64,000 nt of DNA from Eledone cirrhosa (lineage: Eukaryota), in NCBI GenBank assembly GCA_964016885.1, contig OZ024746.1, positions 83,266,001 to 83,330,000 of the forward strand, written 5' to 3'. Every line of letters begins with the position of its first letter. The stretch's first letter is position 1. The translations under genes were made by a program, and so were the position numbers. The notes below the pieces were generated by a model. That model was not told the DNA's origin and did no database searches. It saw only the letters and a program-made list of their open reading frames with translations. Positions 1,422 to 32,425 of the stretch are shown one piece after another.

Positions 1422-4300
1422 ATAATTCCATCCGAATAAAACAGTTCAGGTCATTTCTATATATAAATAAGATGCCTATACACTACTAACATATTGAGTA
1501 CCTTTTTTTACTGTGGTCACTTCCTGATAAACACTGGGAATCCACCCATTATATATATATATATATATATGTGGCTGGAAGGATGGCTAGTTTGCTGGTT
1601 GGCTAAATAGGATCGTTGGATTGCTGGTTTAATGGCTGGATGGCTAGTTTGCTGGTTGGCTAAATAGGATGGTTGGATTGCTGGTTTAATGGCTGGATGG
1701 CTAGTTTGCTGGTTGGCTAAATAGGATGGGTGGATTGCTGGTTTAATGGCTGGCTGGCTAGTTTGCTGGTTGGCTAAATAGGATGGGTGGATTGCTGGTT
1801 TAATGGCTGGATGGCTAGTTTGCTGGTTGGCTAAATAGGATGGTTGGATTGCTGGTTTAATGGCTGGATGGCTAGTTTGCTGGTTGGCTAAATAGGGTGG
1901 TTGGATTGCTGGTTTAATGGCTGGATGGCTAGTTTACTGGTTAGCTAAATAGGATCGTTGGATTGCTGGTTTAATGGCTGGATGGCTAGTTTACTGGTTG
2001 GCTAAATAGGATGGTTGGATTGCTGGTTTAATGGCTGGATGGCTAGTTTGCTGGTTGGCTAAATAGGATGGTTGGATTGCTGGTTTAATGGCTGGATGGC
2101 TAGTTTACTGGTTGGCTAAATAGGATGGTTGGATTGCTGGTTTAATGGCTGGATGGCTAGTTTGCTGGTTGGCTAAATAGGATGGTTGGATTGCTGGTTT
2201 AATGGCTGGATGGCTAGTTTGCTGGTTGGCTAAATAGGATGGTTGGATTGCTGGTTTAATGGCTGGATGGCTAGTTTGCTGGTTGGCTAAATAGGATGGT
2301 TGGATTGCTGGTTTAATGGCTGGATGGCTAGTTTACTGGTTGGCTAAATAGGATGGTTGGATTGCTGGTTTAATGGCTGGATGGCTAGTTTACTGGTTGG
2401 CTAAATAGGATCGTTGGATTGCTGGTTTAATGGCTGGATGGCTAGTTTGCTGGTTGGCTAAATAGGATGGTTGCATTGCTGGTTTAATGGCTGGATGGCT
2501 AGTTTACTGGTTGGCTAAATAGGATCGTTGGATTGCTGGTTTAATGGCTGGATGGCTAGTTTGCTGGTTGGCTAAATAGGATGGTTGGATTGCTGGTTTA
2601 ATGGCTGGATGGCTAGTTTGCTGGTTGGCTAAATAGGATGGTTGGATTGCTGGTTTAATGGCTGGATGGCTAGTTTACTGGTTGGCTAAATAGGATGGTT
2701 GGATTGCTGGTTTAATGGCTGGATGGCTAGTTTACTGGTTGGCTAAATAGGATCGTTGGATTGCTGGTTTAATGGCTGGATGGCTAGTTTGCTGGTTGGC
2801 TAAATAGGATGGTTGGATTGCTGGTTTAATGGCTGGATGGCTAGTTTGCTGGTTGGCTAAATAGGATGGTTGGATTGCTGGTTTAATGGCTGGATGGCTA
2901 GTTTGCTGGTTGGCTAAATAGGATCGTTGGATTGCTGGTTTAATGGCTGGATGGCTAGTTTACTGGTTGGCTAAATAGGATCGTTGGATTGCTGGTTTAA
3001 TGGCTGGATGGCTAGTTTGCTGGTTGGCTAAATAGGATGGTTGGATTGCTGGTTTAATGGCTGGATGGCTAGTTTGCTGGTTGGCTAAATAGGATGGTTG
3101 GATTGCTGGTTTAATGGCTGGATGGCTAGTTTACTGGTTAGCTAAATAGGATCGTTGGATTGCTGGTTTAATGGCTGGATGGCTAGTTTGCTGGTTGGCT
3201 AAATAGGATGGTTGGATTGCTGGTTTAATGGCTGGATGGCTAGTTTGCTGGTTGGCTAAATAGGATCGTTGGATTGCTGGTTTAATGGCTGGATGGCTAG
3301 TTTGCTGGTTGGCTAAATAGGATAGTTGGATTGCTGGTTTAATGGCTGGATGGCTAGTTTACTGGTTAGCTAAATAGGATCGTTGGATTGCTGGTTTAAT
3401 GGCTGGATGGCTAGTTTGCTGGTTGGCTAAATAGGATGGTTGGATTGCTGGTTTAATGGCTGGATGGCTAGTTTGCTGGTTGGCTAAATAGGATGGTTGG
3501 ATTGCTGGTTTAATGGCTGGATGGCTAGTTTGCTGGTTGGCTAAATAGGATGGTTGGATTGCTGGTTTAATGGCTGGATGGTTAGTTTACTGGTTGGCTA
3601 AATAGGATGGTTGGATTGCTGGTTTAATGGCTGGATGGCTAGTTTGCTGGTTGGCTAAATAGGATGGTTGGATTGCTGGTTTAATGGCTGGATGGCTAGT
3701 TTGCTGGTTGGCTAAATAGGATGGTTGGATTGCTGGTTTAATGGCTGGATGGCTAGTTTGCTGGTTGGCTAAATAGGATGGTTGGATTGCTGGTTTAATG
3801 GCTGGATGGCTAGTTTACTGGTTGGCTAAATAGGATGGTTGGATTGCTGGTTTAATGGCTGGATGGCTAGTTTGCTGGTTGGCTAAATAGGATGGTTGGA
3901 TTGCTGGTTTAATGGCTGGATGGCTAGTTTGCTGGTTGGCTAAATAGGATGGCTGGATTGCTGGTTTAATGGCTGGCTGTCTGGTTGGAAGGATGGCTAA
4001 TTTGATGTCTGGCTAAATTTGAATGATGTCTTGATAGAAGCTGGCTTGATAGATAGATACATGAATGGTTAGTTGGTTAGCTGGCTGACTGGTTGGGTAG
4101 CCATTTTGATTGCTTCCTGGCTGAGTGGATGGTTGATTGGTTGGCTTATATATATATATATATATATATAAAATGGGTAGATTCCCAGTGTTTATCAGGA
4201 AGTGACCACAGTAAAAAAAGGTACTCAATATGTTAGTAGTGTATAGGCATCTTATTTATATTTAGAAATGACTTGAACTGTTTTATTCGGATGGAATTAT
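1422..4300. repeat. ~128-bp inverted repeats (1422-1549 / 4172-4300) enclosing a minisatellite
   Basis: ATAATTCCATCCGAATAAAACAG...GGGAATCCACCCATT versus AATGGGTAGATTCCC...CTGTTTTATTCGGATGGAATTAT, with few mismatches. Confidence 0.9.
1581..3974. repeat. 57-bp minisatellite, 42 copies, derived from GGAT/GGTT/GGCT tetramers
   Basis: Unit GGATGGCTAGTTTGCTGGTTGGCTAAATAGGATGGTTGGATTGCTGGTTTAATGGCT. Phase is kept from 1581 to 3974, with variant sites TTTG/TTTA and GATGG/GATCG. A degenerate tail runs to ~4146. Confidence 0.97.
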
Positions 4301-9509: not shown

Positions 9510-9718
9510 AAAGAAGAAATTAAAAAATGGTTAAAAAAGTTCCGTATATTTTATTATGCACATTTCGAAAACAACATCATCCTGGGACAAAAATTGGTTT
9601 CTTATCATGTTAGCTTATTTTATCTGATGAGAACACAATTTGTGTCCCAGGATGATGTTCTTTTCGAAATGTGCATAATAAAATATACGGAACTTTTTTA
9701 ACCATCTTTTAATTTCTT

Positions 9719-10174: not shown

Positions 10175-11170
10175 ACTAAGATACACTACATGTAGACTTA
10201 CCATAGACACACTACATGTTCACTAATCCTAGATATGCCACATGTAGGCTTACAATAGACACACTACATGTTCATTAATTCTAGATATGCCACATGTAGA
10301 CTTACAATAGACACACATGTTCACTAATTCTAGATGTCACATGTAAATTTACAAAACATACGCTACATGTTCACTAATCCTAGATATGCCACATGTAGAC
10401 TTACAATAGACAACTACATGTTCACTAATTCTAGATGTCACATGCAGACTTACAAAACATACGCTACATGTTCACTAATCCTAGATATGTCACATATAGA
10501 CTTACAATAGACACACTACATGTTCACTAATCCTAGATATGCCACATGTAGGCTTACAATAGACACACTAGATGTTCATTAATTCTAGATATGCCACATG
10601 TAGACTTACAATAGACACACATGTTCACTAATTCTAGATGTCACATGTAAATTTACAAAACATACGCTACATGTTCACTAATCCTAGATATGCCACATGT
10701 AGACTTACAATAGACAACTACATCTTCACTAATTCTAGATGTCACATGCAGACTTACAAAACATACGCTACATGTTCACTAATCCTAGATATGTCACATA
10801 TAGACTTACAATAGACACACTACATGTTCACTAATCCTAGATATGCCACATGTAGGCTTACAATAGACACACTACATGTTCATTAATTCTAGATATGCCA
10901 CATGTAGACTTACAATAGACACACTACATGTTCACTAATTCTAGATGTCACATGTAGATTTACAAAACATACGCTACATGTTCACTAATCCTAGATATGC
11001 CACATGTAGACTTACAATAGACAACTACATGTTCACTAATTCTAGATGTCACATGTAGACTTACAAAACATACGCTACATGTTCACTAATCCTAGATATG
11101 CCACATTTAGACTTACAATAGACACACTACATGTTCACTAATCCTAGATATGTCACATGTAGACTTACAA
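10175..11170. repeat. ~52-bp minisatellite (two ~26-bp halves) with a 304-bp higher-order repeat
   Basis: Unit CACACTACATGTTCACTAATCCTAGATATGCCACATGTAGACTTACAATAGA. Marker GGCT recurs at 10247, 10551, 10855 and AAATTT at 10345, 10649. Confidence 0.95.
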
Positions 11171-11217: not shown

Positions 11218-12363
11218 TTACCACAGATAAACTACACGAATACTTACACCTAGTTATACTACATGTAGGACTACTCCTGTACATACATGTAGACTAATCC
11301 TACATATATTACATGTGGATTAAACCTAGAATCAGTACAAGAAGAAGTAGCTCGTTCCAGTCAACCAGGGATAACTTCAAGTTGAGCAACAAAAACAAGA
11401 ATACAAACAAACGCAACATAATCTAACATCTGAAATAACATAACATAACATATATATGTACCACAATCGATTGGGTCGTAGAGATATCAGTGAAGACTTT
11501 GTCTATCTGTAGTATATTTTGGGTAGCTTTACATAAAGTGTAACGATAGTTAGTCTATGTATAGCATACCAGAGGTAAGTCTAGTCTATATGTGATATAT
11601 CTTGGGTAGCTTTATATATAGAGTATCAGTTGTTAGTCTACGAATGGTATATCTGAACTAAGTCTATTCTATATGTGATATATCTTGGGTAGCTTTATAT
11701 ACAGAGTATCAGTTGTTAGTCTACGAATGGTATATCTGAACTAAGTCTATTCTATATGTGATATATCTTGGGTAGCTTTATATACAGAGTATCAGTTGTT
11801 AGTCTACGAATGGTATATCTGAACTAAGTCTATTCTATATGTGATATATCTTGGGTAGCTTTATATACAGAGTATCAGCTGTTAGGGTTAGGGTTAGGTA
11901 TATCTGAGTTAAGTATAATCTGTATGTGATATATCTTGGGTAGCTTTATATATAGAGTATCAGTGGTTAGTATACGTGTGGTATATCTGAGCTAAGTCTA
12001 GTCTATATGTGATATATCTTGGGTAGCTTTATATACAGAGTATCAGTTGTTAGTCTACGTATGGTATATCTGAACTAAGTCTAGTCTCTATATGATATAT
12101 CTTGGGTAGCTTTACAGAAACAGTATCAGTGTTTAGTCTACATATGGTATATCTAAGCTAAGTTTTATCTAGTATCAATGACTACTCTGAGTAGTCATTC
12201 TAGTCTACATGTAGTGTATTTTGAACAAGAGAACATGGAATTTATCTGGAGCAAGTCATCTTGTACTGATTCTAGGTTTAATCGACATGTTGGATTAGTC
12301 TATATGTATGTACAGGAGTAATCCTACATGTAGTATAACTAGGTGTAAGTTTATCTATGGTAA
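11218..12363. repeat. ~120-140-bp inverted repeats (11218-11360 / 12245-12363) enclosing an 83-bp minisatellite
   Basis: CTTACACCTAGTTATACTACATGTAGGA...AAACCTAGAATCAGTACAAG versus CTTGTACTGATTCTAGGTTT...TCCTACATGTAGTATAACTAGGTGTAAG. Confidence 0.88.
11500..12165. repeat. 83-bp minisatellite, ~8 copies
   Basis: CGAATGG marker at 11641, 11724, 11807. One copy is interrupted by TTAGGG repeats. Confidence 0.92.
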
Positions 12364-13131: not shown

Positions 13132-13332
13132 ATGGACCTGTTATTTTTATCTAAAGACATTCTTTCCAATTCCATCCCTCCCGTCCCCTCAATCTATTTT
13201 ATTTCTCATTCTTTCTTCTGATGAAGGACTAGCGTCCGAAACGTTAAGACCCTCTTCCTGCTATATCAAGCGTTAACCTAATATATACTTCCATATATTG
13301 GACCGATTGTGTTGTTATTTATGTTTACCTTT
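13132..13332 (+). mobile_element. ~200-bp Penelope pLTR-like element in (TA)n, with its 3' part inverted at 13557-13623
   Basis: Contains a minimal hammerhead motif. A second copy lies at 21460-21662. Confidence 0.7.
13214..13249 (+). ncRNA. Minimal type I hammerhead ribozyme motif
   Basis: TCTT-CTGATGA-A-GGAC-TAGC-GTCC-GAAA-CG-TT-AAGA. 4-bp stem I, 4-bp stem II, extra A after the core, palindromic ACGT in place of stem III. Confidence 0.75.
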
Positions 13333-13414
13333 TACACACACACATATATATATACATATATATATATACATATATATATACATACATATATATATATATA
13401 TATACATATATATA

Positions 13415-13516
<102 letters not shown>

Positions 13517-13649
13517 TATATATATGTATATATATATATATATGTATATATATACGTGTGTGTGTAAAAGGTAAACATAAATAATAACACAATCGGTCCA
13601 ATATATGGAAGTATATATTAGGTATATATGGAAGTATATATTAATATCG

Positions 13650-13700
<51 letters not shown>

Positions 13701-13739
13701 GATATTAATAAATGGAAACTATATTTATAAAACCATATC

Positions 13740-13804
13740 TATTTCATTATATATATTTCAAGGATACCAAGTTACATTATGGTATGCCTTCATCAGACAA
13801 AATA
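13740..13804 (-). ncRNA. Type I hammerhead motif (mirror copy)
   Basis: Reverse complement of 13908-13972. Confidence 0.65.
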
Positions 13805-13907
13805 CAATATATAACAGTTTTATAAATAGACATTGATGGCCTCCAAAAACAACGGTCGATTTTTAAAGGGGTACGTCAATGTCTATTTATAAAAGTGTTA
13901 TATATTG

Positions 13908-13972
13908 TATTTTGTCTGATGAAGGCATACCATAATGTAACTTGGTATCCTTGAAATATATATAATGAAATA
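13908..13972 (+). ncRNA. Type I hammerhead ribozyme motif
   Basis: TATTTTGT-CTGATGA-AGGCATACCA-loop-TGGTATCCTT-GAAA-TATATA-TA-ATGAAATA. Stem I 8 bp (2 G.U), stem II 10 positions (one C.C mismatch), palindromic stem III. Confidence 0.68.
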
Positions 13973-14099
13973 GATATGGTTTTATAAATATAGTTTCCAT
14001 TTATTAATATCGTATATCTACTCCAAATATTTGTCGAGTGCTTTATATCAGTTATAAAAATATTTGCTTGTTGTATCCCAACAATTTAAATAAAACCTT

Positions 14100-14183
<84 letters not shown>

Positions 14184-14277
14184 CATATACATATATGTAT
14201 ATATATATATATATATGTACATATATATATATATATATACATACATACATACATACATACATACATACATACATACA

Positions 14278-14309
<32 letters not shown>

Positions 14310-14415
14310 ATGCATACGTACATACATAAGCACATATATAAATACATATACATAAATACATTCATTCATACTTACACACACACACACATGCATACATAAT
14401 ACATACATCCATATG

Positions 14416-14461
<46 letters not shown>

Positions 14462-14737
14462 AATGTATTTATATATACACAGTCTATATATATCCACTTG
14501 TGTCTATGATGTAGTCTTTAACAAGATAACAATACAATGTTTTATATAGCAGCAGTAAATGTTATTTTTTCCGCTAGTCAAAACACTACTGTACGTCAGT
14601 TAGTTCGAGTCTCTTCAATACAACTTCTCTAGTGATACACACCATTTTGACACTTAGATAGACACATCTACACAAACTTGAGTGATTTGGTTGAAAGGGT
14701 TATCTCCCTTGCATGCTGAGGTTAGGTGAAGATAAAT

Positions 14738-14783
<46 letters not shown>

Positions 14784-14997
14784 TTCTTTATTTACCATAA
14801 AGGCATAAAAAGAAGGGACAAATACAAAGGGGGAGTTTACATATAATCGAGTAAAAAGGGTGTAACATGAAAATAATCGAAAATAACCTCAAAAGGGAGG
14901 GGACGTGATGGGGGTTGCACACACCCCCGAAAAAGTGTGCAATCCTTTGCCCGGGGAGCACATGGAGAAGGTGCTCCCCTCTCCTTTACTTCTTTAC

Positions 14998-17900
14998 CTA
15001 CAGGATGGTATACAGAGAAGGCCCATTTACACGAGCCATTCTCGCCACTATCACCCACCTTTCATAAAACTGCCTGTGGCCAAGCACCTCTCTCTCCATT
15101 CTTATCCTTCTTCCGAAGTGATATCGGAAGAAGTAGACCAGACTATGGCCAGAGAGGAAGTTGCCTGACCTCAGACCTTTCAATCGTGTCCACCAAACAA
15201 CCTCTTTCAACATGGCTATTACGCACAGAAAAACCGCCTTTGCTTCCTTTGTGAAGAGGGGAGGCGGTTTGATTGTCATCACGGACTCGGCGGTCAATTT
15301 AATCGGCGCCACCCGCGACAGCAGTCGTTCGGCGTAGCCCCACAGATCAGCCACGCCAGGACATTGCACCAATGCGTGCGCCACGGTTTCTTCGTGACGC
15401 ACGCACCTAGGGCAAATCTTTTTTGAGGGATCCCTGCCCGGGCGCCCGTGTCTGTAGAGCCTCTCTCGAACGGGTAGAGCCCCTCGGTAGCACTGCCAGG
15501 CCAGTGACTTCTGGAAGTTGTCCATTGGTCCCGGGCCGAAAGTCCTACCGAACAGGCTGGCCAGTTCGTCTTCTTCCATGTCCAGCGACTCTCCAAGGGT
15601 GTCATCGCCCCTGCTAGCCACCAGCCCTCTATAGAATGATGAGGTGGATTCTCCACCGATGGCCCGGCCCGCTTGCCAGAGAGCCCTGAGCGCCTGAGCA
15701 CACTCAGTGTGCCAGTCTCCCAGTTTTCCGGATCTTTGCTTGACCCAGGACTGTAGCTCGGTGAGTGAGACGAGTCTCGGAAAGGCTCGTTTCACGAACG
15801 GAGCCCACACCGGTTGACCAGTGAGGAATACCTGTAGGTGCCGTAGCCTTAATGCGTGCCTACGCATCATCAACCACGGCATCCCCAGCCCTCCTTTCGA
15901 AGGTTGTTGGCAGCAGATGGATCTTCTCACCATAGGAGGACGCTTCTTCCAAAGAAATTGGAAGAGCATGCGTTCCATGGTGGTGAGTGTTTCCTTAGGG
16001 CAAGGCACGACAGTCAGGCGGTAGTAAGTGACGGACGCTATGTAAATGTTCGCCACCTCCGCCCGGCCTTTTAGGGACAGCTTACACTTGGCCCATTTCT
16101 GGGTTAGTGCAAACACCTTGTTCGTAACCTCGTTCCAGTTCTTTTCCACCTGGAGGTCCGGTCCAAACCAGACCCCAAGCAACTTTACCGGGCCCTCCGT
16201 CCAGTGTCCGACGACACCGTCAGGAGGCATCGGTCTGCCTCTCCACGTTCCGAGTTGCAGCCCGATGGATTTTTCCCGGTTCAGTTTCGCTCCTGACAAC
16301 CTTTCGTACTCCTCCAGTAAGGTACCGATCGCCTCGATCTCCGAGTCGGTTGATACCATTACTGTTACGTCATCGGCGTAGGCCGACACCGCTTTGCTCA
16401 ATCCTGGTTCCAGGGGGATACCCTGCAACAACTCCAACTTCCTCAGTAAAGGCTCGAGAGTCAATACGTACAGAAGGGAGGAGAGAGGGCACCCCTGTCG
16501 AATGGATCGTGTGATTTCGAACGGCTTCGAAAGGTAGCCGTTCACCTTGATCCTAGAACAGATGTGGTTGCTATGTAGGGCAGTGATCCAGCCTCTGAAA
16601 ACAGGACCGAACCCAGCCGCCGCTAGCACCGCATCCAGGTAACCATGGTCGACCCTATCGAAGGCCTTAGACTGATCCAAGTTGATCAGGGCCCCACCGA
16701 AGCCGGGTTTGTTGCCAACCCTCTCTATGATGTATCGCATGAGGTGGAGGTTATCGTGAATGGACCTGGATGGGATAGCACATGTCTGCGCATCTCCCAC
16801 CAGGCCACCCACGACAAGCGCCAACCTCTTTGCTAACACCTTGGCCAAAATCTTTAACTCTGTGTTTAGCAGGGTTATGGGCCGAAAATTATTTATACTA
16901 TCCCCCTTTTTCTCGTCCTTCCTCACCAGCGCGACTACGCCCTTGGCTACAGAACAAGGAATTCTCCCGTTCTGCTGCCAATTGCAGTAGACCGCTGCGA
17001 GGAGTTCGGAGAAGAAGACCGGCATTGCTAAATAAAGTTCGTAAGGTATACCATCGAGACCTGGAGATTTGCGTCTGCTGCATTGGCTCAGCGCATCTCC
17101 GATCTCATCAGCCGAGATTGGTCCCTCGCAGGACTCTGCCTCTTTGTTCGAGAGACGCGGCAGGCCGTCGAGGTATGGACCGAAATCCACGCCCCGGCCC
17201 GGACCCTCGCCTCCCCCGAACAATCGGGCAAAGTGCTTTTGAAAGGCCTCGCACATCTGCTTAGGCTCCCGGATCACTCGTCCATCTTCGTCTTGCAACG
17301 ACCGGATGGTGGATCGATTTCCACTTTTAGCTTCTGTCACGCGGGCCCATCCAACGGCTTTGGCCCCCTCATTACCTAGAGCACGTATTTTACTTCGAAT
17401 GACGCAGCCTTCATGCTTTGCATCGAAAAACTGGTTCAAGGCCGTCCTCGATGCCAGCACTCTGGCCACATCTTCGCTCTTGATTGCCTCTTCTAATTTA
17501 CCTGTTAATTCTTTCTCGTTTCTATTCCTATTGGCAGCTAACATCTTGCTATAACTTATTGATTCTGTTCTAATCTCTCTTTTGAGAGATGCCCACCATC
17601 GGTTGTTGACGATTGCACCCGTCAACCTCTCCTTAACTAATCTGCTAATCCGGTTTCTGTAAGTCTCTTTTGCCGGTAAAGACAAATTAAGTTTCCAGTA
17701 ACCGGGACCCTGTCTATGTGTTTTCTCGAGATTGACCACGCAGGTCACTAATTTGTGATCCGTGTAGCCAACCGTGCGCATTTCTGGACAGCTTAATATG
17801 TCCCTATCCTTACTTCTAACTAAGAATCTATCTAAGTACGATCTAGATTGACCACTGTGGTTTCTCCAAGTCCAGGTAGGCACAGTTGGAAAATCTAGTC

Positions 17901-18435
17901 GATATCTATCGACCAAGTTAAAACGGTCGAGTAACCCCTTGAGGCTGTTACACCCCCCTCTATTAGGACATGCTCCTGCATAGTCCCAACGTGCATCTAG
18001 GATGTCATTCCAATCCCCCGCTAGAAGCAGGGAACGCGACGTTCCCAGAAAAGTCTCCAAACGCTGGAAGAAGTCGGGCCGTTCAGCTCCGAAAGGGGAG
18101 TAGACGGCGACCAGTCTCAAGGCCGCACTTTCACTACTGCCAACGTCTAGCACCAACAAACGACCCTCCGGGTCCGAGTGCACAACCTGTACGGCAAGAC
18201 CCAGGTGTTTTTGCAGCAGCACGACAACCCCACCCCCACCTCCAGGTTGACAGAGAGATGCATGCACCTCAAAGTCATCGAAGGTGGGGGCCAGCTGCCG
18301 CATGACGCTGATTCGAGTCTCACAGATAACCATTACATTTATACTACATGACCTGAGGTCATTTAGAAGCTTTGCTTGCTTCCAAGTTGAGCCCAGGCCA
18401 CGTGCATTCAAACATCCTACTCTTAACACATCCAT
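14998..18435 (-). CDS. LINE ORF2p: APE endonuclease + reverse transcriptase + C-terminal zinc finger (1145 aa)
   Basis: APE motifs LNARGL, CETR, GDWN, YLDRF, TDH. Linker PGYWKLN. RT motifs KSPGLDG, FRPITLLN, KAFDRV, RQGCPLS, YADD. C-terminal CPRC..ETVAHALVQC. Confidence 0.97.
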   Translation of the reverse strand: MDVLRVGCLNARGLGSTWKQAKLLNDLRSCSINVMVICETRISVMRQLAPTFDDFEVHASLCQPGGGGGVVVLLQKHLGLAVQVVHSDPEGRLLVLDVGSSESAALRLVAVYSPFGAERPDFFQRLETFLGTSRSLLLAGDWNDILDARWDYAGACPNRGGCNSLKGLLDRFNLVDRYRLDFPTVPTWTWRNHSGQSRSYLDRFLVRSKDRDILSCPEMRTVGYTDHKLVTCVVNLEKTHRQGPGYWKLNLSLPAKETYRNRISRLVKERLTGAIVNNRWWASLKREIRTESISYSKMLAANRNRNEKELTGKLEEAIKSEDVARVLASRTALNQFFDAKHEGCVIRSKIRALGNEGAKAVGWARVTEAKSGNRSTIRSLQDEDGRVIREPKQMCEAFQKHFARLFGGGEGPGRGVDFGPYLDGLPRLSNKEAESCEGPISADEIGDALSQCSRRKSPGLDGIPYELYLAMPVFFSELLAAVYCNWQQNGRIPCSVAKGVVALVRKDEKKGDSINNFRPITLLNTELKILAKVLAKRLALVVGGLVGDAQTCAIPSRSIHDNLHLMRYIIERVGNKPGFGGALINLDQSKAFDRVDHGYLDAVLAAAGFGPVFRGWITALHSNHICSRIKVNGYLSKPFEITRSIRQGCPLSSLLYVLTLEPLLRKLELLQGIPLEPGLSKAVSAYADDVTVMVSTDSEIEAIGTLLEEYERLSGAKLNREKSIGLQLGTWRGRPMPPDGVVGHWTEGPVKLLGVWFGPDLQVEKNWNEVTNKVFALTQKWAKCKLSLKGRAEVANIYIASVTYYRLTVVPCPKETLTTMERMLFQFLWKKRPPMVRRSICCQQPSKGGLGMPWLMMRRHALRLRHLQVFLTGQPVWAPFVKRAFPRLVSLTELQSWVKQRSGKLGDWHTECAQALRALWQAGRAIGGESTSSFYRGLVASRGDDTLGESLDMEEDELASLFGRTFGPGPMDNFQKSLAWQCYRGALPVRERLYRHGRPGRDPSKKICPRCVRHEETVAHALVQCPGVADLWGYAERLLSRVAPIKLTAESVMTIKPPPLFTKEAKAVFLCVIAMLKEVVWWTRLKGLRSGNFLSGHSLVYFFRYHFGRRIRMEREVLGHRQFYERWVIVARMARVNGPSLYTIL

Positions 18436-18468
18436 GTGGGCGGCAGAGCCAAAGGAGAGTGTAGAGAC

Positions 18469-20349
18469 CTACCTTTCCGCTTCCCGGGGTTCGGGTTGCA
18501 CGACTTCCATGGGGTCGGGGGTGTTGGGTGAAGGGGTGTCTTGTGGTGGTGTGGGGTCGTCGGTGTGTGGTGGGGTTGGGGTGTTTGGAGTTGTGTTGGG
18601 GAGGGGAAGGGGAGGGGGAAAGCTTTTTAGTAGGACGCGGTTTATGGGTTTGACAGAGGGTGGTCCTACGTCCTCCTTAAAATCCTTTTTTAGTTTTTGG
18701 TAGAGGTTCATTGGGATTTTTATTAGTTTTAAATGTGGGTGGTTTTCTGATGAAACAAAGTTTACACCTTCGGTTTGTACCGAAGGATTATTGTATATGA
18801 GTTCATTTAATTTATTATTGTTTCTGTTGATGTAAGTATAGTGTAATGTCTTTTTTTCCGATGGTGTGAGTGTTTCGAAGAGGGGAGGGGCAGGTTTGGT
18901 TTTGTTTGTTGCTGGAGGGGTGTTTTCTGTTTTGTTAGATTGTGTTGCGATTTGGGTGGGGGTTGTTTGTCCTTGTGTGTTTTGCACATGTTTTCTTTTT
19001 TTCCTTTTAATCTGTCTGAAGGACTCCGTTTCTTCCTCCGAATTCGTTGGGTTATCTTCAGTGTTGGAGGGAAGAGGTATGTTTGCTGGTAATGTTTCCG
19101 TGTTGGTTTTCTTTGTGGGGGAGATGGATGTCACTATGTTAGACTGTGTTGTGTGTTGTGTCTGCGGTGGTTGTGTTGTTTTATTGAGTGAGAGGTTGGG
19201 TGGGCCTGTATTTTGTTTTGGGGTAATGTGTTGTGACTGTTTGTGTTGTGGTGGTGTTGTGGTGTTACTGAGGGACGGGTTGGGTGGGACTGAGTTTTGT
19301 TGTTTGTTTATCTGTTGTGGTGGTGGTGGTGGAGCTGGTGTTGGTAGCAGGGTTTTCTTTTTGTTGAGTTGGGGACAAGCGGCCTTCAGGTGCCCTCTGC
19401 CTGCACAGATATGGCAGGACGGCCTTCTCCCCTCCACGCTAATGTTTATATACCCGTGGTCCTCTAATAGGATTCTGTCGGGTATTTGGGCGATGCGTTC
19501 AGGCTTCATTTGTACTACCAGCTCTATACCTGTTCCACTGAACGCATTGCCTGTGGTTTTCCCAATGGAAATCACGTTGTCATTCACTGGATCGATGAAG
19601 CCAGCTATGAGCCAGCAGTAGTCCACATCTGGCATCATTGCATCCAGCCATATGCGTTGAGTTTTTTTCCCCATATAAGATGGATAAAAGGTGAAATTTT
19701 TCGAACGAATCGGTGACAAAGCACATTTTTTTGCCGCCGATTCGTTCTTCATGATAATTGCTAGGCTTCCATACAGTCTGTCTTTTCTTATGAAAGTTGT
19801 TTCATTCAGTACTTCTGCGAGTACTGTTTTGATATCTGCTTGAGAAGGCTGTTCAGGTTTTTTTGTACTGTTGTTGATGGTCCGAAACTTGACCGTTCGG
19901 CTTTCAATGTCTTTCGTGAATTCTTGAGGCATTTTTACCAATAAAATACCATTCTCACCTTCACTTATGTATTGTTTTGCGTCCGTGATCCTTCGTACCA
20001 CATCTGAAATGTTTTCCGCTATATAAGTCAAAGATTTCTTTGTTTTCTGTGCAAAAGAAATCTTGTCGTCTGCTTTGTTTTCTGATATTATGTTATTTTC
20101 AACTGTTATTTTTTTGTTTGTTGTGTCTTTGTTTGTGTTATTAGTATTGTCATGCAATTTTTCAAATTTTTTTTTTTCGTTGTTTTCGTCATTTAATTTT
20201 TTTTCCTCCGCAGATTCGTCCGTTTTTATTTTCATTTTTCCTTCCTTCTCTATGACGTTAGTTGGGAAGGAAGGGAGGACTAAAGCGTGCGAGCTTACAA
20301 CTCTTACCGCTGTCCCCCCACCACTATTTTCGTTCGCTGCGTTTAACAT
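18469..20349 (-). CDS. LINE ORF1p with CCHC zinc knuckle and low-complexity P/T/Q/N tail (626 aa)
   Basis: CHICAGRGHLKAAC (CX2CX4HX4C), positioned upstream of ORF2. A homologue lies at 27.4-29.0 kb. Confidence 0.9.
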   Translation of the reverse strand: MLNAANENSGGGTAVRVVSSHALVLPSFPTNVIEKEGKMKIKTDESAEEKKLNDENNEKKKFEKLHDNTNNTNKDTTNKKITVENNIISENKADDKISFAQKTKKSLTYIAENISDVVRRITDAKQYISEGENGILLVKMPQEFTKDIESRTVKFRTINNSTKKPEQPSQADIKTVLAEVLNETTFIRKDRLYGSLAIIMKNESAAKKCALSPIRSKNFTFYPSYMGKKTQRIWLDAMMPDVDYCWLIAGFIDPVNDNVISIGKTTGNAFSGTGIELVVQMKPERIAQIPDRILLEDHGYINISVEGRRPSCHICAGRGHLKAACPQLNKKKTLLPTPAPPPPPQQINKQQNSVPPNPSLSNTTTPPQHKQSQHITPKQNTGPPNLSLNKTTQPPQTQHTTQSNIVTSISPTKKTNTETLPANIPLPSNTEDNPTNSEEETESFRQIKRKKRKHVQNTQGQTTPTQIATQSNKTENTPPATNKTKPAPPLFETLTPSEKKTLHYTYINRNNNKLNELIYNNPSVQTEGVNFVSSENHPHLKLIKIPMNLYQKLKKDFKEDVGPPSVKPINRVLLKSFPPPLPLPNTTPNTPTPPHTDDPTPPQDTPSPNTPDPMEVVQPEPREAER

Positions 20350-20573
20350 TTCTGTTAGACGATTGAAATTTTTTACACAAAATTTTTTAAAACAGGTTTT
20401 TCACCTCTAGGAGGGGTAAAGATGAGCTGACCCACCGCCTGACAGTTCAGACGGAGGGTCAAGCTACACAATTGTATCAAAATTAAGTTTGAACTCACAA
20501 AATTTCCTCAATAAATTTGAACAAAACTTCTGTGCGAAGTGAATGACATCCACACTGTAGAACAGACGACAGC

Positions 20574-20579
20574 TAGATG

Positions 20580-20641
<62 letters not shown>
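20574..20641. repeat. (TAGA)n at the LINE 5' junction
   Basis: Direct reading. The matching tract is at 14739-14783. Confidence 0.95.
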
Positions 20642-20686
20642 CGTGTGTCTATATGTATATGTATATATTATATATATTTCTCTGTG

Positions 20687-20749
<63 letters not shown>

Positions 20750-20754
20750 ATGTA

Positions 20755-20974
20755 GCCGTATTTTTTTTATTTTTTCATTCGCACCGTTTCCTTTCGCTAT
20801 GTCTCTCCACCACTCCCCTACACACCCTTTGAACTCTGTTCCCACACACTTCTCACCTGAGGAAGGGCTTATGCCCGAAGCGTCGTCCCCCACCAACACC
20901 CCACTCTCCAGAGCGTGAAATTAATAAACATTCGTTGTACTGCCTCTCTGTTTTGTCTCTGTTCAAATTTTTCC

Positions 20975-20976
<2 letters not shown>
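20755..20976 (+). mobile_element. Penelope pLTR-like element with a decayed minimal hammerhead (20855-20886)
   Basis: AC-CTGAGGA-A-GGGC-TTAT-GCCC-GAAG-CG-TC-GT, with GAAA changed to GAAG. Downstream AATAAA; flanked by TA/TG repeats. Confidence 0.6.
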
Positions 20977-21052
<76 letters not shown>

Positions 21053-21100
21053 AATGTTTGTTTTGCTTATGTTTGTGTGGCTGTGTGTGTATGTATATAT

Positions 21101-21406
21101 ACGAACTGCAACTCCCTCGTTTATTTATTTTGGTTATCTCTCGTTCACGATTCCACCAAATTTATATTCATAGAAATCTGGGACTTGTTTCTTTCTTCTT
21201 CATCACTTTCTGTTGCTTAAACCATTTTATTTGTTTACCCTAGCGTCCCCTTTATTTACGTGTCCCAACGACTTTTTTTAGCCGTTGCTCGCACCAACCT
21301 GAGGTATATGGTCTTTAAAGCGACGAAATGCCTACGACGGTTGGAAGGCCACTGATGAAGGACAAACTTTTTCATATGTAACCCATTTGCAACGCCGCAG
21401 CTCCAT

Positions 21407-21408
<2 letters not shown>
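21101..21408 (+). mobile_element. Interspersed element in (TA)n with degenerate hammerhead-like cores; homologue at ~26040-26240
   Basis: CGCACCAAC..GAGGTATATG..GCGA.GAAAT..GTTGG..CACTGATGA.GGAC is shared with 26118-26191. Absent at the paralogous TA tract ~13100-13132. Confidence 0.6.
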
Positions 21409-21459
<51 letters not shown>

Positions 21460-21462
<3 letters not shown>

Positions 21463-21659
21463 ACCTGTTATTTTTATCTAAAGACATTTTTTCCAATTCC
21501 ATCCCGCCCGTCCCCTCAATCTATTTTATTTCTCATTCTTTCTTCTGATGAAAGACTAGCGTCCGAAACGTTAAGACCCTCTTCCTGCTATATCAAGCGT
21601 TAACCTAATATATACTTCCATATATTGGACCGATTGTGTTTTTATTTATGTTTACCTTT

Positions 21660-21727
<68 letters not shown>

Positions 21728-21732
21728 TATAC

Positions 21733-21766
<34 letters not shown>

Positions 21767-21821
21767 ACATATACATATATGTATATATATATATATATAT
21801 GTACATATATACATACATACA

Positions 21822-21855
<34 letters not shown>

Positions 21856-21926
21856 CATACATATAATGCATACGTACATACATAAGCACATATATAAATA
21901 CATATACATAAATACATTCATTCATA

Positions 21927-22004
<78 letters not shown>

Positions 22005-22284
22005 AATGAATGTATTTATATATACACAGTCTATATATATCCACTTGTGTCTATGATGTAGTCTTTAACAAGATAACAATACAATGTTTTATATAGCAGC
22101 AGTAAATGTTATTTTTTCCGCTAGTCAAAACACTACTGTACGTCAGTTAGTTCGAGTCTCTTCAATACAACTTCTCTAGTGATACACACCATTTTGACAC
22201 TTAGATAGACACATCTACACAAACTTGAGTGATTTGGTTGAAAGGGTTATCTCCCTTGCATGCTGAGGTTAGGTGAAGATAAAT

Positions 22285-22353
<69 letters not shown>

Positions 22354-22402
22354 CGTGTGTCTATATGTATATGCATTTATTATATATATTTCTCTCTGTA
22401 TT

Positions 22403-22433
<31 letters not shown>

Positions 22434-22436
22434 ATG
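21460..22436 (+). repeat. Local segmental duplicate of 13132-13332 + 14102-14783 + 20574-20754, lacking the LINE and fold-backs
   Basis: The unique block GAATGAATGTATTT...GGTGAAGATAAATA appears identical at 14457-14738 and 22004-22285. The same GACGTGTGTCTATATG follows the TAGA tract. Confidence 0.95.
21541..21576 (+). ncRNA. Paralogous minimal hammerhead with stem II mutation
   Basis: Same as 13214-13249 but GGAC>AGAC, which breaks the core-proximal stem II pair. Confidence 0.55.
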
Positions 22437-22499
<63 letters not shown>

Positions 22500-26737: not shown

Positions 26738-27045
26738 TTCTTTCTTCCCTTCTTTGTCAGTTGATACACTTGGGATACTCTTTCGTCTTTACTTGTATAA
26801 TTCGCGGAAAGGCATAACTTGTCCTGTCTTTGTCTCTAATATGCACTGGAATGAATAGTATCCACCTTAGCGAACCAAAATTGTAGTAATCTCCAGAGAT
26901 TGACTGAGGTATTGGGCCTTTCCGTTTTTCTGTTGTTTTCAGTAGGCAACTTGGTGTCCCATCATCCCAGCCTTTCCACATTTTCACAGGCATTTACCTT
27001 TCCCAAATACTGTCGACCTTGGGCTTAAATCAGAAACCATTAAAA

Positions 27046-27262
27046 GGCGGTGGCTTAGCAGAGTCGATAGAGTGTCAGAAAGATGCTTTGTGGTATTTGT
27101 TCCGACTCTTTATGTTCTGAGTTCAAATCCCGCTACGGTCAACTCTGCCTTTTATCTTTCCGAGGTCGATAAAATAAAGTATTAGTTAAGTACTAGGCTC
27201 GATAAAATCGACTTCTCCCTTTTCCTTAAATTGCTAACCTTGTGACAAAATTAGAAACAATT
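27046..27262 (+). mobile_element. tRNA-derived SINE, near full length
   Basis: GGCGGTGGCTTAGCAGAGTCG head, B box GAGTTCAAATCCC at 27119, 3' CCTTGTG..AAATTAGAAACAATT. Homologous to 31294-31480. Confidence 0.85.
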
Positions 27263-27338
27263 AATTATAACTATAACCCCACTGAAGAGTGACCCATAAA
27301 GGGTTTACCATTTAAAAATTTAACTTTTTTGCCAATAA

Positions 27339-29252
27339 TTTTTTTTTTTTTTTCATATTTTGAAAATATATTATTTTAATCAGATTTTTTGTTATTTTTA
27401 ATAGAGTGGGCGAAAGTTTTCCCTTCGGTTTTCACCGAAGGGTTGTTCGTGATGGTCTCCATTAGTGTTTTGTTTTCAGTATTTATGTAAGTGTAAATGT
27501 AATTTTCTTGTGTTGTGTTTGTTTTTGTCTGTAGTTCTTGTGTGTTTTCGTTTTGTTGTAGGTATTTTGTTTTCAGGAGGTGGGGGTTTTGTTTGTGATG
27601 TTTTTGTTGTTTGTGTTGGTGGTTGTATGTTTGTGGTAGTGTTTGCTGTTTTTTGGCTTTTGTGATGTCTTTTCTTTCTTTTCGAGCGATGGGGTTCTCC
27701 CTTGTCTTCACTGGGTGATGGCGAGATAGCCTATCTGTTGTATCGTCTGTGTAATTGGGGAGGGGTATGTCTTGGGGAGCTGTTGTGTCTGTATGTGATT
27801 TTGAAGTGGTTTTAGGTGGAGTGGGGTTGGGTGGGACTGTGTTTGTTGTAGTTATTTTTGTGTGTTGGTGTTGTTGTTGTGGTGGTGTTGGTTGTGTTAT
27901 TTTGATGGGTGTCGGCAGAAGAGTCTTTTTTTGACTCATTAATTTAGGACAGGAAGCCCTCAGGTGACCCCTGCTAAAACAGTGGTAACATGAAGGCCAC
28001 TTGCCCTCAACCGAAAAGTTTATGTAGGTGAGTCCGTCCAGGAGTACACGTTGTGGGATCATAGCTATTCGCTCTGGGCTCATTTGCACCAGAACTTCAA
28101 CGCTAGTCCCATTGAATGCATCTCTGGGGGGCTTTCCTACTGAAAGTATTTTGTCTTCATCAAAATTGATGAAGCCGCACAGTATCCACCATGTTTACCT
28201 TTGGTGTGACACTCGTGATTCTAATCTTTTGTGTCCTTTTTCCTATGTATGTAGGGAAAAAGGTATACAGGTTGGATGCAATTGGCGACACAGAGTAATT
28301 TTGGGCCGTCAATTGATCCTTCATGAGTACCGAAATACTCCCAAAGAGTTTGCTTCTTTGAATGAATGAAATATCATTCATTGAATTTTTGAAAACCAGT
28401 TCAATTTCTTTCTGTGACAATTGGACTGGTTTTCGGGTAGAATTGGAAACTGTCCTAAAAACTATCGTTTTGAGAGCAGTTTTCTTGCGAATTTCTACAG
28501 CAGAATTGATGCTGAAAGCACCATTTTTTCCTAGCGTTCTTTAAAAGTTGTTCGGCATTTGTTATGTCGAGATATGTCAGTTCCTCCTTTTTCTGAACTG
28601 TCTGTGCAAAGGAGATTTTCGGTTTCTTTGTGGAATTATCCGTGTTGGTGGTGTTGTCATTATTGTTGTTATTCGTGTTGTTATTCTTGTTGTCACTGAT
28701 GTTGATATTGTTCGTATTTTCCTTGGTGTTGGTGTTGTTGTTGTCTTTGATGCTGGTATTATTGGTGTTGTCTTTATTTTTTTCTTTGTTGTTGTTGTTG
28801 TCATTGTTGTCTTTATCATCATTATTGGTGTTGTTGTTGTTATTTTTGTTGTCATTGTACTGTTTGGTGTCATTTGTGTTGTTTGGATACGAATTTGTTT
28901 TTACAATTTCATTTCGTCTTTCCATCTCCATAGTATCTATCGAGAAGGAAAGGGAAGAAGACGATGTAGACTGCGAGCTATGTAGTCTTACCGACTCTCC
29001 ACCACCATTATCTTCGACCGCAGCGTTCATAACGTAATAAAACTTCTTACGATATTTTTTCAAAAATTCGATGGAGAAAAACCTTTTAAAACGAATATTT
29101 CGCCCCTGTAGGGGCGAAAATGAGTTGACCCACCACCTGAAGGTCCAGACGGGGAGTCAAGTTACACAATAATATAAAATTTAACTGAAAACTCACGGCA
29201 TTTTTCTTACATAAATTAACGGAAACTTCTCCGCGAAGTTACACACGTCTGG
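27339..29252 (-). mobile_element. ORF1-only copy of a related Tx1-like family, 5' end abutting (TAGA)n
   Basis: 5' UTR and ORF1 are homologous to the intact LINE. Homology ends at an A-run, and no ORF2 follows. Confidence 0.88.
27376..29030 (-). pseudogene. Frameshifted LINE ORF1
   Basis: Fragments MNAAVEDNGGGESVR, KISFAQ, FFPTYIGKRTQKI, CYHCFSRGHLRASC, KKTLLPTP, NNPSVKTEG align in order to ORF1 at 18469-20349. Confidence 0.9.
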
Positions 29253-29257
29253 TAGAG

Positions 29258-29341
<84 letters not shown>

Positions 29342-29389
29342 GGATGGATGGATGGATGGATGGATGGATGGATGTGGATAGATAGATAG
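29253..29389. repeat. (TAGA)n(TGGA)n microsatellite
   Basis: Direct reading. Confidence 0.95.
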
Positions 29390-30804: not shown

Positions 30805-30863
30805 TAAAGTACCAGTAATGTACTGGGTAATTGCTGGCCTTGTGCCTAAAGTAGAAACAATTA
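30805..30863 (+). mobile_element. SINE 3' fragment
   Basis: Near-exact reverse complement of 31293-31350. Confidence 0.75.
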
Positions 30864-31293: not shown

Positions 31294-31480
31294 AATTGTT
31301 TCTACTTTAGGCACAAGGCCAGCAATTACCAGTGCATTACTGGTACTTTATTTTATCGACCCCGTAAGGATGAAAGGCAAAGTCAACCTCGGCGGGATTT
31401 GAACTCAGATGGTAAAGGGACGTAACTATGCTGGAAAGCATGGCGTCCGACCCTCTACCGATACTGCCAATCCACCGCCC
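31294..31480 (-). mobile_element. tRNA-derived SINE, followed by a second 3' fragment at 31510-31547
   Basis: Minus strand GGGCGGTGGATTGGCAGTATCGG (A box)...GAGTTCAAATCCC (B box)...GGTCGATAAAATAAAGTACCAG. Confidence 0.88.
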
Positions 31481-31547
31481 TTATATATATTAGTAATAAT
31501 ATTAATAATAATTGTTTCTACTTTAGGCACAAGGCCAGCAAATACCC

Positions 31548-32425
31548 AAAACGGCAACATCTAAAATGACACTAAAATCCCTAAAACGGCATCATTTTAG
31601 TCATTTATAATGACGTTTTCGCCATTTTAGTCGTTTTTGTATGACGTTTTAGTTATTTATGATGACGTTTTAGTCATTTTAGTCATTTATGATGCCGTTT
31701 TAGCCATTTTAGTGTTATGTTACCCATTTGTGATGCCGTTTTAGCCATTTTAGAGTCATTTAAGTCGTTTATGAAGCCGTTTTAGCCATCTTAGAGGCAA
31801 TTTAGCCATTTATAATGACGTTTTAGTCATTTTAGTCATTTATGATGTCGTTTTAGCCATTTTATTGTCATTTTAGTCACTTATGATACCGTTTTAGCCA
31901 TTTTAGAGTCATTTTAGTCGTTTACGATGCCGTTTTAGCCATTTTAGCGTTAGTTTAGCCATTTATGATGACGTTTTAGTCATTTTAGTCATTTATGATG
32001 ACGTTTTAGTCATTTATGATGACGTTTTAGCCATTTTAGTCATTTATGATTCCGTTTTAGCCATTTTAGTGTCATTTTAGTCATTTATCATAAATGAGTA
32101 GAACGTCATCATAGATGACTAAAATCATAGATGGCTAAATTGGCTAAATTGGTTAAATTGACTCTATAATGGCTAAAACGGCATCATAAATGGCTAAATT
32201 GAGACTTAAATGGCTAAAACGTAATCATGAATGACTAAAATGGCTAAAAGGTCATCATAAATGACTAAAACATCATCATAAATGAGTAAAATGGCTAAAA
32301 CGTCATCATAAGTGGCTACATTGACTCTAAAATGGGTAAAACGGCATCGTAAATGACTGAAATGATTAAAACGTCATCATAAATAACTAAAATATCATAC
32401 AAAAATGACTAAAAAGGCTAAAACG
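31548..32425. repeat. Fold-back array built from 10/21-bp sub-repeats, with polarity flip at ~32085
   Basis: CATTTTAGTC/CATTTATGATGACGTTTTAG units on the left and their reverse complements on the right. The outer ends (31615 onward; up to 32425) align colinearly. Confidence 0.88.

Follow-up and report, generated by a model that had tools for sequence, protein, structure and literature searches.

An intact, putatively Tx1-like LINE bounded by TAGA repeats in Eledone cirrhosa and a probable microsatellite preference of its lineage

Organization of the locus

The stretch of DNA analyzed here (the window; 64,000 nucleotides of the Eledone cirrhosa genome, assembly GCA_964016885.1, contig OZ024746.1, positions 83,266,001 to 83,330,000 of the forward strand) holds a full-length long interspersed nuclear element (LINE), E1, which lies between two tracts of the tetranucleotide TAGA (Table 1). 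A preliminary description of the window had presented E1 as an intact Tx1-like LINE targeting (TAGA)n, with a filled and an empty site in the same window. We found E1 inside a TAGA tract, an uninterrupted counterpart of its site within a duplicated segment, and a second, decayed relative (E2) that also begins at a TAGA tract, and we consider it likely that the E1 lineage has some real preference for TAGA.

Table 1. Positions of E1, E2, the TAGA tracts, and the duplicated segment in the window, with the records of the related array lineage.
Feature	Location	Strand	Remarks
Duplicated segment, copy A, left part	13134-14738		~760 extra bases at 13340-14100
(TAGA)11	14739-14782	plus	At E1 3' end; (ATCT)n on the element strand
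E1, full-length LINE	14784-20573	minus	5' boundary possibly 20581 if the TAGA-TGGA units are included
3' untranslated region (UTR) of E1	14784-14997	minus	214 bases, without poly(A)
Open reading frame 2 (ORF2) of E1	14998-18435	minus	1145 aa, open; APE, RT, C-terminal zf-RVT
ORF1 of E1	18469-20349	minus	626 aa, open; single CCHC knuckle at residue 312
5' UTR of E1	20350-20573	minus	224 bases; 74% identity with E2 over 165 bases
TAGA-TGGA-(TAGA)15	20574-20641	plus	At E1 5' end
Duplicated segment, copy B	21461-22440		Element absent
Uninterrupted (TAGA)17	22286-22353	plus	Empty counterpart of the E1 site
E2, decayed relative	27300-29252	minus	5' UTR and frameshifted ORF1; left boundary approximate
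TAGA-GAGA-(TAGA)20, then (TGGA)n	29253-29389	plus	At E2 5' end
Array records (G001)	Contigs C3-C19; loci L056-L093, L097, L101, L146, L150-L164		

The claim that E1 is intact was borne out, given that both ORFs are open, with a gap of 33 bases between them, and that the apurinic/apyrimidinic endonuclease-like (APE), reverse transcriptase (RT), and zinc-finger motifs are whole. The APE residues of ORF2 are N10, E39, Y112, D141, N143, D202, D226, and H227, the catalytic residues being kept across 57 aligned sequences, and the RT motif is YADD at 686. Pfam comparison of ORF2 returned Exo_endo_phos, RVT_1, and zf-RVT (the last slightly below cut-off) and no RNase H, while no Pfam family reached the cut-off in ORF1. 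A language-model search of ORF1 returned CCHC/RRM-type eukaryotic proteins as look-alikes (scores 0.90-0.92), a lead only as to the nature of this protein. The closest solved structure for ORF2 is human L1 ORF2p (E 4e-51), with R2 behind at 1e-19, and an alignment-based model of the APE domain (predicted local distance difference test, pLDDT, 95) had the L1 endonuclease (L1-EN) as its first structural match (template modeling score, TM, 0.81). The catalytic residues of E1 are intact, and its APE domain is predicted to have an L1-EN-like fold. As read from its sequence, E1 has the layout of the L1 group, namely an N-terminal APE, an RT, and a C-terminal zinc finger with no RNase H, preceded by a separate upstream ORF1 whose nucleic-acid binding is putative, from the CCHC knuckle.

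The filled and the empty site

In the sense direction, E1 ends in AATAAAGAA and then passes immediately into (ATCT)n, with no poly(A) between and with its AATAAA only 3 bases upstream of the junction; TAGA repeats lie on both sides of the element, as had been claimed. The repeat is also present in the empty site, which carries the uninterrupted tract that the preliminary description had noted, so that the window offers one filled/empty pair, plus one further 5' junction at E2. The flanks of the two sites had been called the same, which is exact on the left, where all 352 non-repeat bases agree, and looser on the right, where 3 of 51 bases differ and the homology stops in a (TA)n run ~100 bases out. 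An outer block common to both copies of the duplicated segment (13134-13335 and 21461-21662) differs at 4 of 202 bases, and overall copies A and B differ at 7 of 605 compared bases (1.2%), the mismatches being clustered (permutation p 0.0015).

We considered that the filled and empty sites might be two alleles placed in tandem by the assembly, in which case E1 would be a heterozygous new insertion. Divergence of 1.2% with an identical core would suit such a pair; however, the ~700 bases between the copies resemble neither outer flank and each copy carries extra segments of its own, as expected of a genuine tandem duplication that later underwent gene conversion, and we regard the allelic explanation as doubtful. 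If true, it would strengthen the case for insertion into an existing tract. The duplicate was also considered as an orphan 3' transduction, which was ruled out as it would require a TAGA tract near 21660, where (TA)n is found.

A second element at a TAGA tract

The preliminary description had also placed a second, diverged family member at a TAGA tract. E2 does begin at 29252 beside such a tract, but it is a relic: its frameshifted ORF1 matches that of E1 at 38% over 113 aa and 56% over 94 aa, no ORF2 remnant was found anywhere in the window, and, its 3' junction being lost, it supplies one junction only. The 5' ends of E1 and E2 join their tracts in one common register and with the same orientation, and they differ from each other up to the tract itself. 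All three visible junctions (both ends of E1 and the 5' end of E2) are at TAGA.

Between positions 4000 and 32400, TAGA/TCTA occurs in 7 tracts with a total of 416 bases, whereas (TA)n, in 38 tracts and 1342 bases, is about three times as abundant by bases and holds neither element. TAGA tracts of the same orientation, extended by 10 bases on each side and including those at the elements, make up 1.9% of this region at most, and a same-orientation TAGA tract at the second element is therefore unlikely to be a product of chance (at most ~2%). Given that E1 and E2 share ancestry, this count leaves room for an inherited terminal repeat. An alternative without any family-wide preference, in which a loosely targeted LINE nicks TpA-rich repeats and is seen at TAGA by luck or local survival, draws on the richness of the region in microsatellites, the post hoc choice of the finding, and a sample of two; set against the ~2% ceiling for the second element and the vacancy of the far commoner (TA)n, we consider it quite unlikely.

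An A-run at ~27340 was rejected as a poly(A) tail of E2, since ORF1-like sequence runs on across it (by eye). A short dispersed repeat (27043-27270, also 31331-31482) lies at the point where the E2 homology ends.

Classification and relatives

Of the candidates scored in three protein searches for relatives, 71 of 7998, 934 of 8000, and 1006 of 7999 were matches; the nearest named relatives are from Argonauta hians (67% in the RT) and Acanthosepion pharaonis (47-51%), which points to an octopod cephalopod host. For the trees, we selected 41 of the proteins retrieved, together with 34 of 101 loci (76 rows in a quick tree, 40 of those in a careful tree). The Tx1 clade was represented by stand-ins, namely elements inserted in U2, U1, and 5S genes, and curated Tx1L, Keno, Kibi, and Koshi were not among the rows. 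These stand-ins were recognized with Rfam, which among 20 loci placed relatives in U2 (L003, L008, L037), U1 (L094), and 5S (L098) genes.

In the quick tree, E1 fell within a cephalopod clade (support 100) whose sister comprised fish and turtle proteins (96), and the U2/U1 elements grouped with the E1 clade (Shimodaira-Hasegawa-like approximate likelihood ratio test, SH-aLRT, 90), with plant L1s outside. The careful tree recovered the cephalopod clade (100/100) but neither the deeper forks nor the fish/turtle sister grouping. A protein of the U2 group scored 440 bits against E1, compared to 177 bits for human L1 ORF2p. The motif DQSKAFDRV is common to E1 and the U2-inserted elements L003 and L008 (RT identity 38-39%), and its looser form DQxKAFDRV, which we take to be diagnostic of the Tx1 clade, is common to E1, the U2/U1-inserted elements, and the fish/turtle matches and is missing from the plant row in which a motif can be read. 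By these comparisons, E1 appears closer to Tx1-like elements of known target than to mammalian L1. Of the original assignment to Tx1, the placement in the L1/Tx1 group stands; E1 is Tx1-like on good grounds, and formal membership of the Tx1 clade is likely. At E1 itself, no U2, other small nuclear RNA (snRNA), 5S, or tRNA gene was matched by Rfam at gathering score between 4000 and 32500, the 141 matches listed there all lying below that score and being mostly microsatellite noise.

Among the relatives, one (L094:3036-10137) is a two-ORF APE LINE in a U1 snRNA gene, seen in one copy, with a whole U1 in front and, behind a short A-run, U1 from ~position 36 with the same downstream flank. The accessible portion of one paper names only Keno, Utopia, and Dada as snRNA-targeting families (PMC4640811), papers being cited throughout for the portions of their text that were accessible, and our literature search found no U1-targeting Tx1. 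The U2-gene insertions (L003, L008, L037) show a Keno-like junction after an A-run, and L098 adjoins a 5S rRNA gene.

Copy number and age

Among the 22 public sequencing runs listed (14 studies), 18 contain part of E1 and 5 contain at least half of its words; there are no RNA datasets among the listed runs containing E1. We placed contigs from four public runs on E1 in 30 bins, skipping the repeat ends, where 14 loose ends were dropped. Three runs gave coverage in all 30 bins, the fourth in 29. Run X2 contributed 15458 placed contigs, of which 2429 are at least 99% alike to E1; one contig, at the E1 5' end, matches over 102 bases with 0 differences at a depth of 2604 (10-55 for the other listed pieces), although depth from placed contigs is not copy number. 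Summed depth in this run is greater over ORF2 than at the 5' end, the pattern expected from 5' truncation and conserved relatives. In run X1, one contig is identical to E1 over 471 bases and carries 34 further letters, which would take it 21 past the E1 3' end, an overhang equally compatible with a shared target or a shared tail. We infer that the E1 family is multicopy, with many young, near-identical copies. The preliminary description had called the lineage recently active and GATA-specific, of which intactness, youth, and multiple copies hold and insertion into TAGA is the best reading, while genome-wide specificity goes beyond the evidence of one window.

Scans for related loci gave 55 in metagenomes and 46 in genomes, with no E1-family copy among them, and none in viral contigs. 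Matches in genome_contigs to DNA patterns of the E1 3' end (4) and of the 5' motif of E1 and E2 (28) fell in bacteria-titled records and were set aside as chance. In run X1, depth rises to 970-2950 at 20028-20417 (~80 in the bins on either side), and a long loose end lies at 20185; this peak is an abundant relative sharing only the 5' part of E1.

A sister lineage in head-to-tail arrays

Of the 46 loci from the scan of genome_contigs, 40 came from a single record titled as a bacterial metagenome-assembled genome (G001, 4.5 Mb), which holds, on at least 15 contigs, arrays of animal-type LINEs with an ORF2 ~40% identical to that of E1. The array elements group with the decapodiforms within the cephalopod clade, one of them next to cuttlefish proteins, and the arrays are host DNA binned with the bacterium. 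They comprise 62 3' ends on 15 contigs, up to 13 on one contig, and their units are intact, Tx1-like, and arranged head to tail with a period of ~6.4-6.9 kb. Like E1, the units end in AATAAA without poly(A). Behind the AATAAA lies a spacer of 11-18 bases that varies between arrays or families; it follows the last unit in all three array ends seen (L150, L152, L154), stands also in front of 5'-truncated units (L154), and precedes the first unit in one of three array starts seen (L150), where it resembles a target-site duplication. The bases directly behind AATAAA in this lineage thus act in part as target and in part as cargo, and the pattern suggests that read-through RNA may help to select the site. 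No TTAGGG repeats were matched at the array relatives, and none of the three TAGA tracts in G001 adjoins an array-unit match. These arrays look worth a study of their own.

A motif of 11 bases (at 30836, 31310, and 31526 in the window) lies close to the end of a short dispersed repeat and recurs just before AATAAA in the G001 array LINEs; the two are possibly a short interspersed nuclear element (SINE) and its partner LINE.

TAGA preference and its possible mechanism

Given the complete APE, RT, and zinc finger in ORF2 and the position of E1 inside the tract with (ATCT)n directly 3', the explanation we favor, with our confidence evenly balanced, is that E1 is a young, intact LINE of a Tx1-like cephalopod lineage favoring (TAGA)n, and that it inserted in a pre-existing tract through the joint action of its nuclease and its RNA. 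RNA cleavage at 10-30 bases after AATAAA is an established spacing, and with the AATAAA of E1 so close to the junction, the cut would fall inside read-through (AUCU)n. This read-through could pair with the nicked strand and prime reverse transcription, so that no poly(A) would be copied; each new copy would again be backed by (ATCT)n, and the preference would be passed on and sustain itself, nuclease and RNA both contributing. A role of 3' read-through RNA in priming has reportedly been described for R1Bm. The nick itself would be made by the APE on the AGAT-reading strand, in a register matching a cut at the T/A step (between T and A), as with L1-EN, which cuts TTTT/AA (PMC1950540).

Several points weigh against this account. 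The evidence comprises two elements and three junctions in one window, and the flanks of further E1-family copies lie outside the data behind the preference. The filled/empty pair fits insertion or loss alike and gives no direction of change. Neither TAGA nor ATCT occurs at any of 32 distinct 3' junctions (39 loci) of the array lineage, the nearest relatives whose DNA could be inspected, which indicates that the poly(A)-less end is lineage-wide and (ATCT)n is not. Furthermore, two of the three array starts (L161, L146) have no spacer ahead of the first unit, so that in this lineage the bases behind AATAAA can be carried along as a tail to dissimilar sites.

The last observation bears on a further alternative, in which (ATCT)n is borne by the element (a read-through tail lengthened by slippage, the 5' repeat being inherited with the transcript) and the empty site arose by tract-tract recombination looping the element out of a duplicated copy. 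Besides the mobile spacers, the empty tract has 17 units, the same as the right-hand filled tract, and the overhang of the X1 contig is as compatible with a shared tail as with a shared target. Yet this course of events requires repeats at both ends, a duplication of ~7.5 kb, and a later deletion, the 5' ends of E1 and E2 differ right up to the tract, and a tail alone cannot give (TCTA)n 5' of two diverged elements; we give it little credence.

The two halves of the favored mechanism may also be taken singly. Strict (TAGA)n specificity could reside in the APE domain alone, as in Xenopus Tx1L, with the RNA end playing no part. In vitro, nicking by Tx1L-EN is almost wholly confined to its target (PMC1950540), sequence specificity resides in the APEs of TRAS1, Tx1L, and R1Bm (PMC1950540, PMC1919474), and the junctions in the window fit. 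The argument is nonetheless drawn from sequence, the hairpin-loop region is equally long in E1, L1-EN, and the U1-inserted relative and is not diagnostic, and the junction sequence of the array lineage varies from array to array, such that we think this version unlikely. Hairpin-loop length was dropped as a marker of target type, as it fails to separate the types.

Conversely, the target may be set mainly by the RNA, a transcript cut shortly past AATAAA retaining the donor 3' flank and pairing it with nicked DNA. A landing in (TAGA)n would then have founded a GATA-seeking family, and landings in unique DNA would re-insert at their own duplicated site, giving head-to-tail arrays of at least 10 units. 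We offer this tentatively and judge it improbable; if it were true, target choice would be inherited through flanking DNA and changeable via 15-20 bases of RNA. Steering by read-through RNA would explain the frequent target switching of Tx1 and the tandem arrays of the array lineage.

Comparison with known systems

Tx1 and R1 are the APE clades in which target specificity is frequent (PMC4640811, PMC3747384), and microsatellite targets are documented for the teleost Tx1 families Kibi, in (TC)n, and Koshi, in (TTC)n, and for the crocodilian Tx1-1_Crp group, in (TTCC)n/(TTTC)n, families being counted as microsatellite-specific where >20% of copies are flanked by the same repeat (PMC4494074). Like these, E1 is an APE-type LINE inside a pyrimidine-rich microsatellite; it differs in its unit, (ATCT)n, its cephalopod host, and its lack of poly(A), with no curated Kibi or Koshi in our trees. 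Keno is a U2 snRNA-targeting Tx1 (PMC4494074, PMC4640811), and the U2-sited, Keno-like relatives share the DQSKAFDRV motif with E1, but they terminate in a short A-run, which E1 lacks, and their target is an RNA gene. Xenopus Tx1L (target Tx1D) shares with E1 two ORFs, the APE-RT-zinc finger order, and, presumably, target-primed insertion into a defined sequence, though its specificity is established biochemically and aims at one sequence (PMC1950540) while the putative preference of E1 is read from junctions. R1Bm, SART1, and TRAS1 of the R1 clade resemble E1 in the APE-type targeting of repeats and differ in clade. Targets of the R1 clade are rDNA and telomeric repeats.

In cephalopods, L1-Tx1 is among the repeats expanded in coleoids (PMC8967140), and 13 recently active L1-Tx1 families with 421 insertions are reported from Octopus vulgaris (PMC13282606). 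These share the class label and probably the host group of E1, which may be one of them; in the accessible main text of that report, the word "target" is absent (PMC13282606). Our literature search found no GATA/(ATCT)n-targeting Tx1, although Repbase and the founding 2004 description lay outside it and may list one. Given that microsatellite targeting by Tx1 is already known, most likely only the repeat unit and the host are new here. Should the preference hold genome-wide, (ATCT)n and cephalopods would join the list of Tx1 microsatellite targets, and GATA-repeat loci, which are common population markers, could gain 6-kb insertions.

The suggestion that the APE domain of E1 could be a site-specific integration tool is unsupported by these data. 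A tetranucleotide microsatellite is a many-site target, and (GATA)n is too common to make a good single-site insertion tool. Moreover, L1-EN loop grafts failed to transfer the specificity of Tx1L (PMC1950540).

Other repeats in the window

Hammerhead-like CTGA.GA...GAAA motifs, located with a simple pattern, occur at 9624, 13218, 13796, 13916, 21545, 25199, and 26436 in short (TA)n-bounded fragments, two of them forming an inverted pair at 13700-14020; no hammerhead was recognized by Rfam between 4000 and 32500. We assume that these fragments resemble Penelope-like elements, and they may be connected with the duplication. The window from 32424 to 64000 is occupied by a 20-base satellite (~1555 copies, half of the window) that yields long false ORFs and is preceded by an AT-rich array of 21/30/41-base units, with a switch in orientation near 32090. 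Minisatellites lie at 1-669 (unit 40), 1581-3976 (57), 10188-11170 (~52, higher order 304), and 11501-12171 (83 bases).

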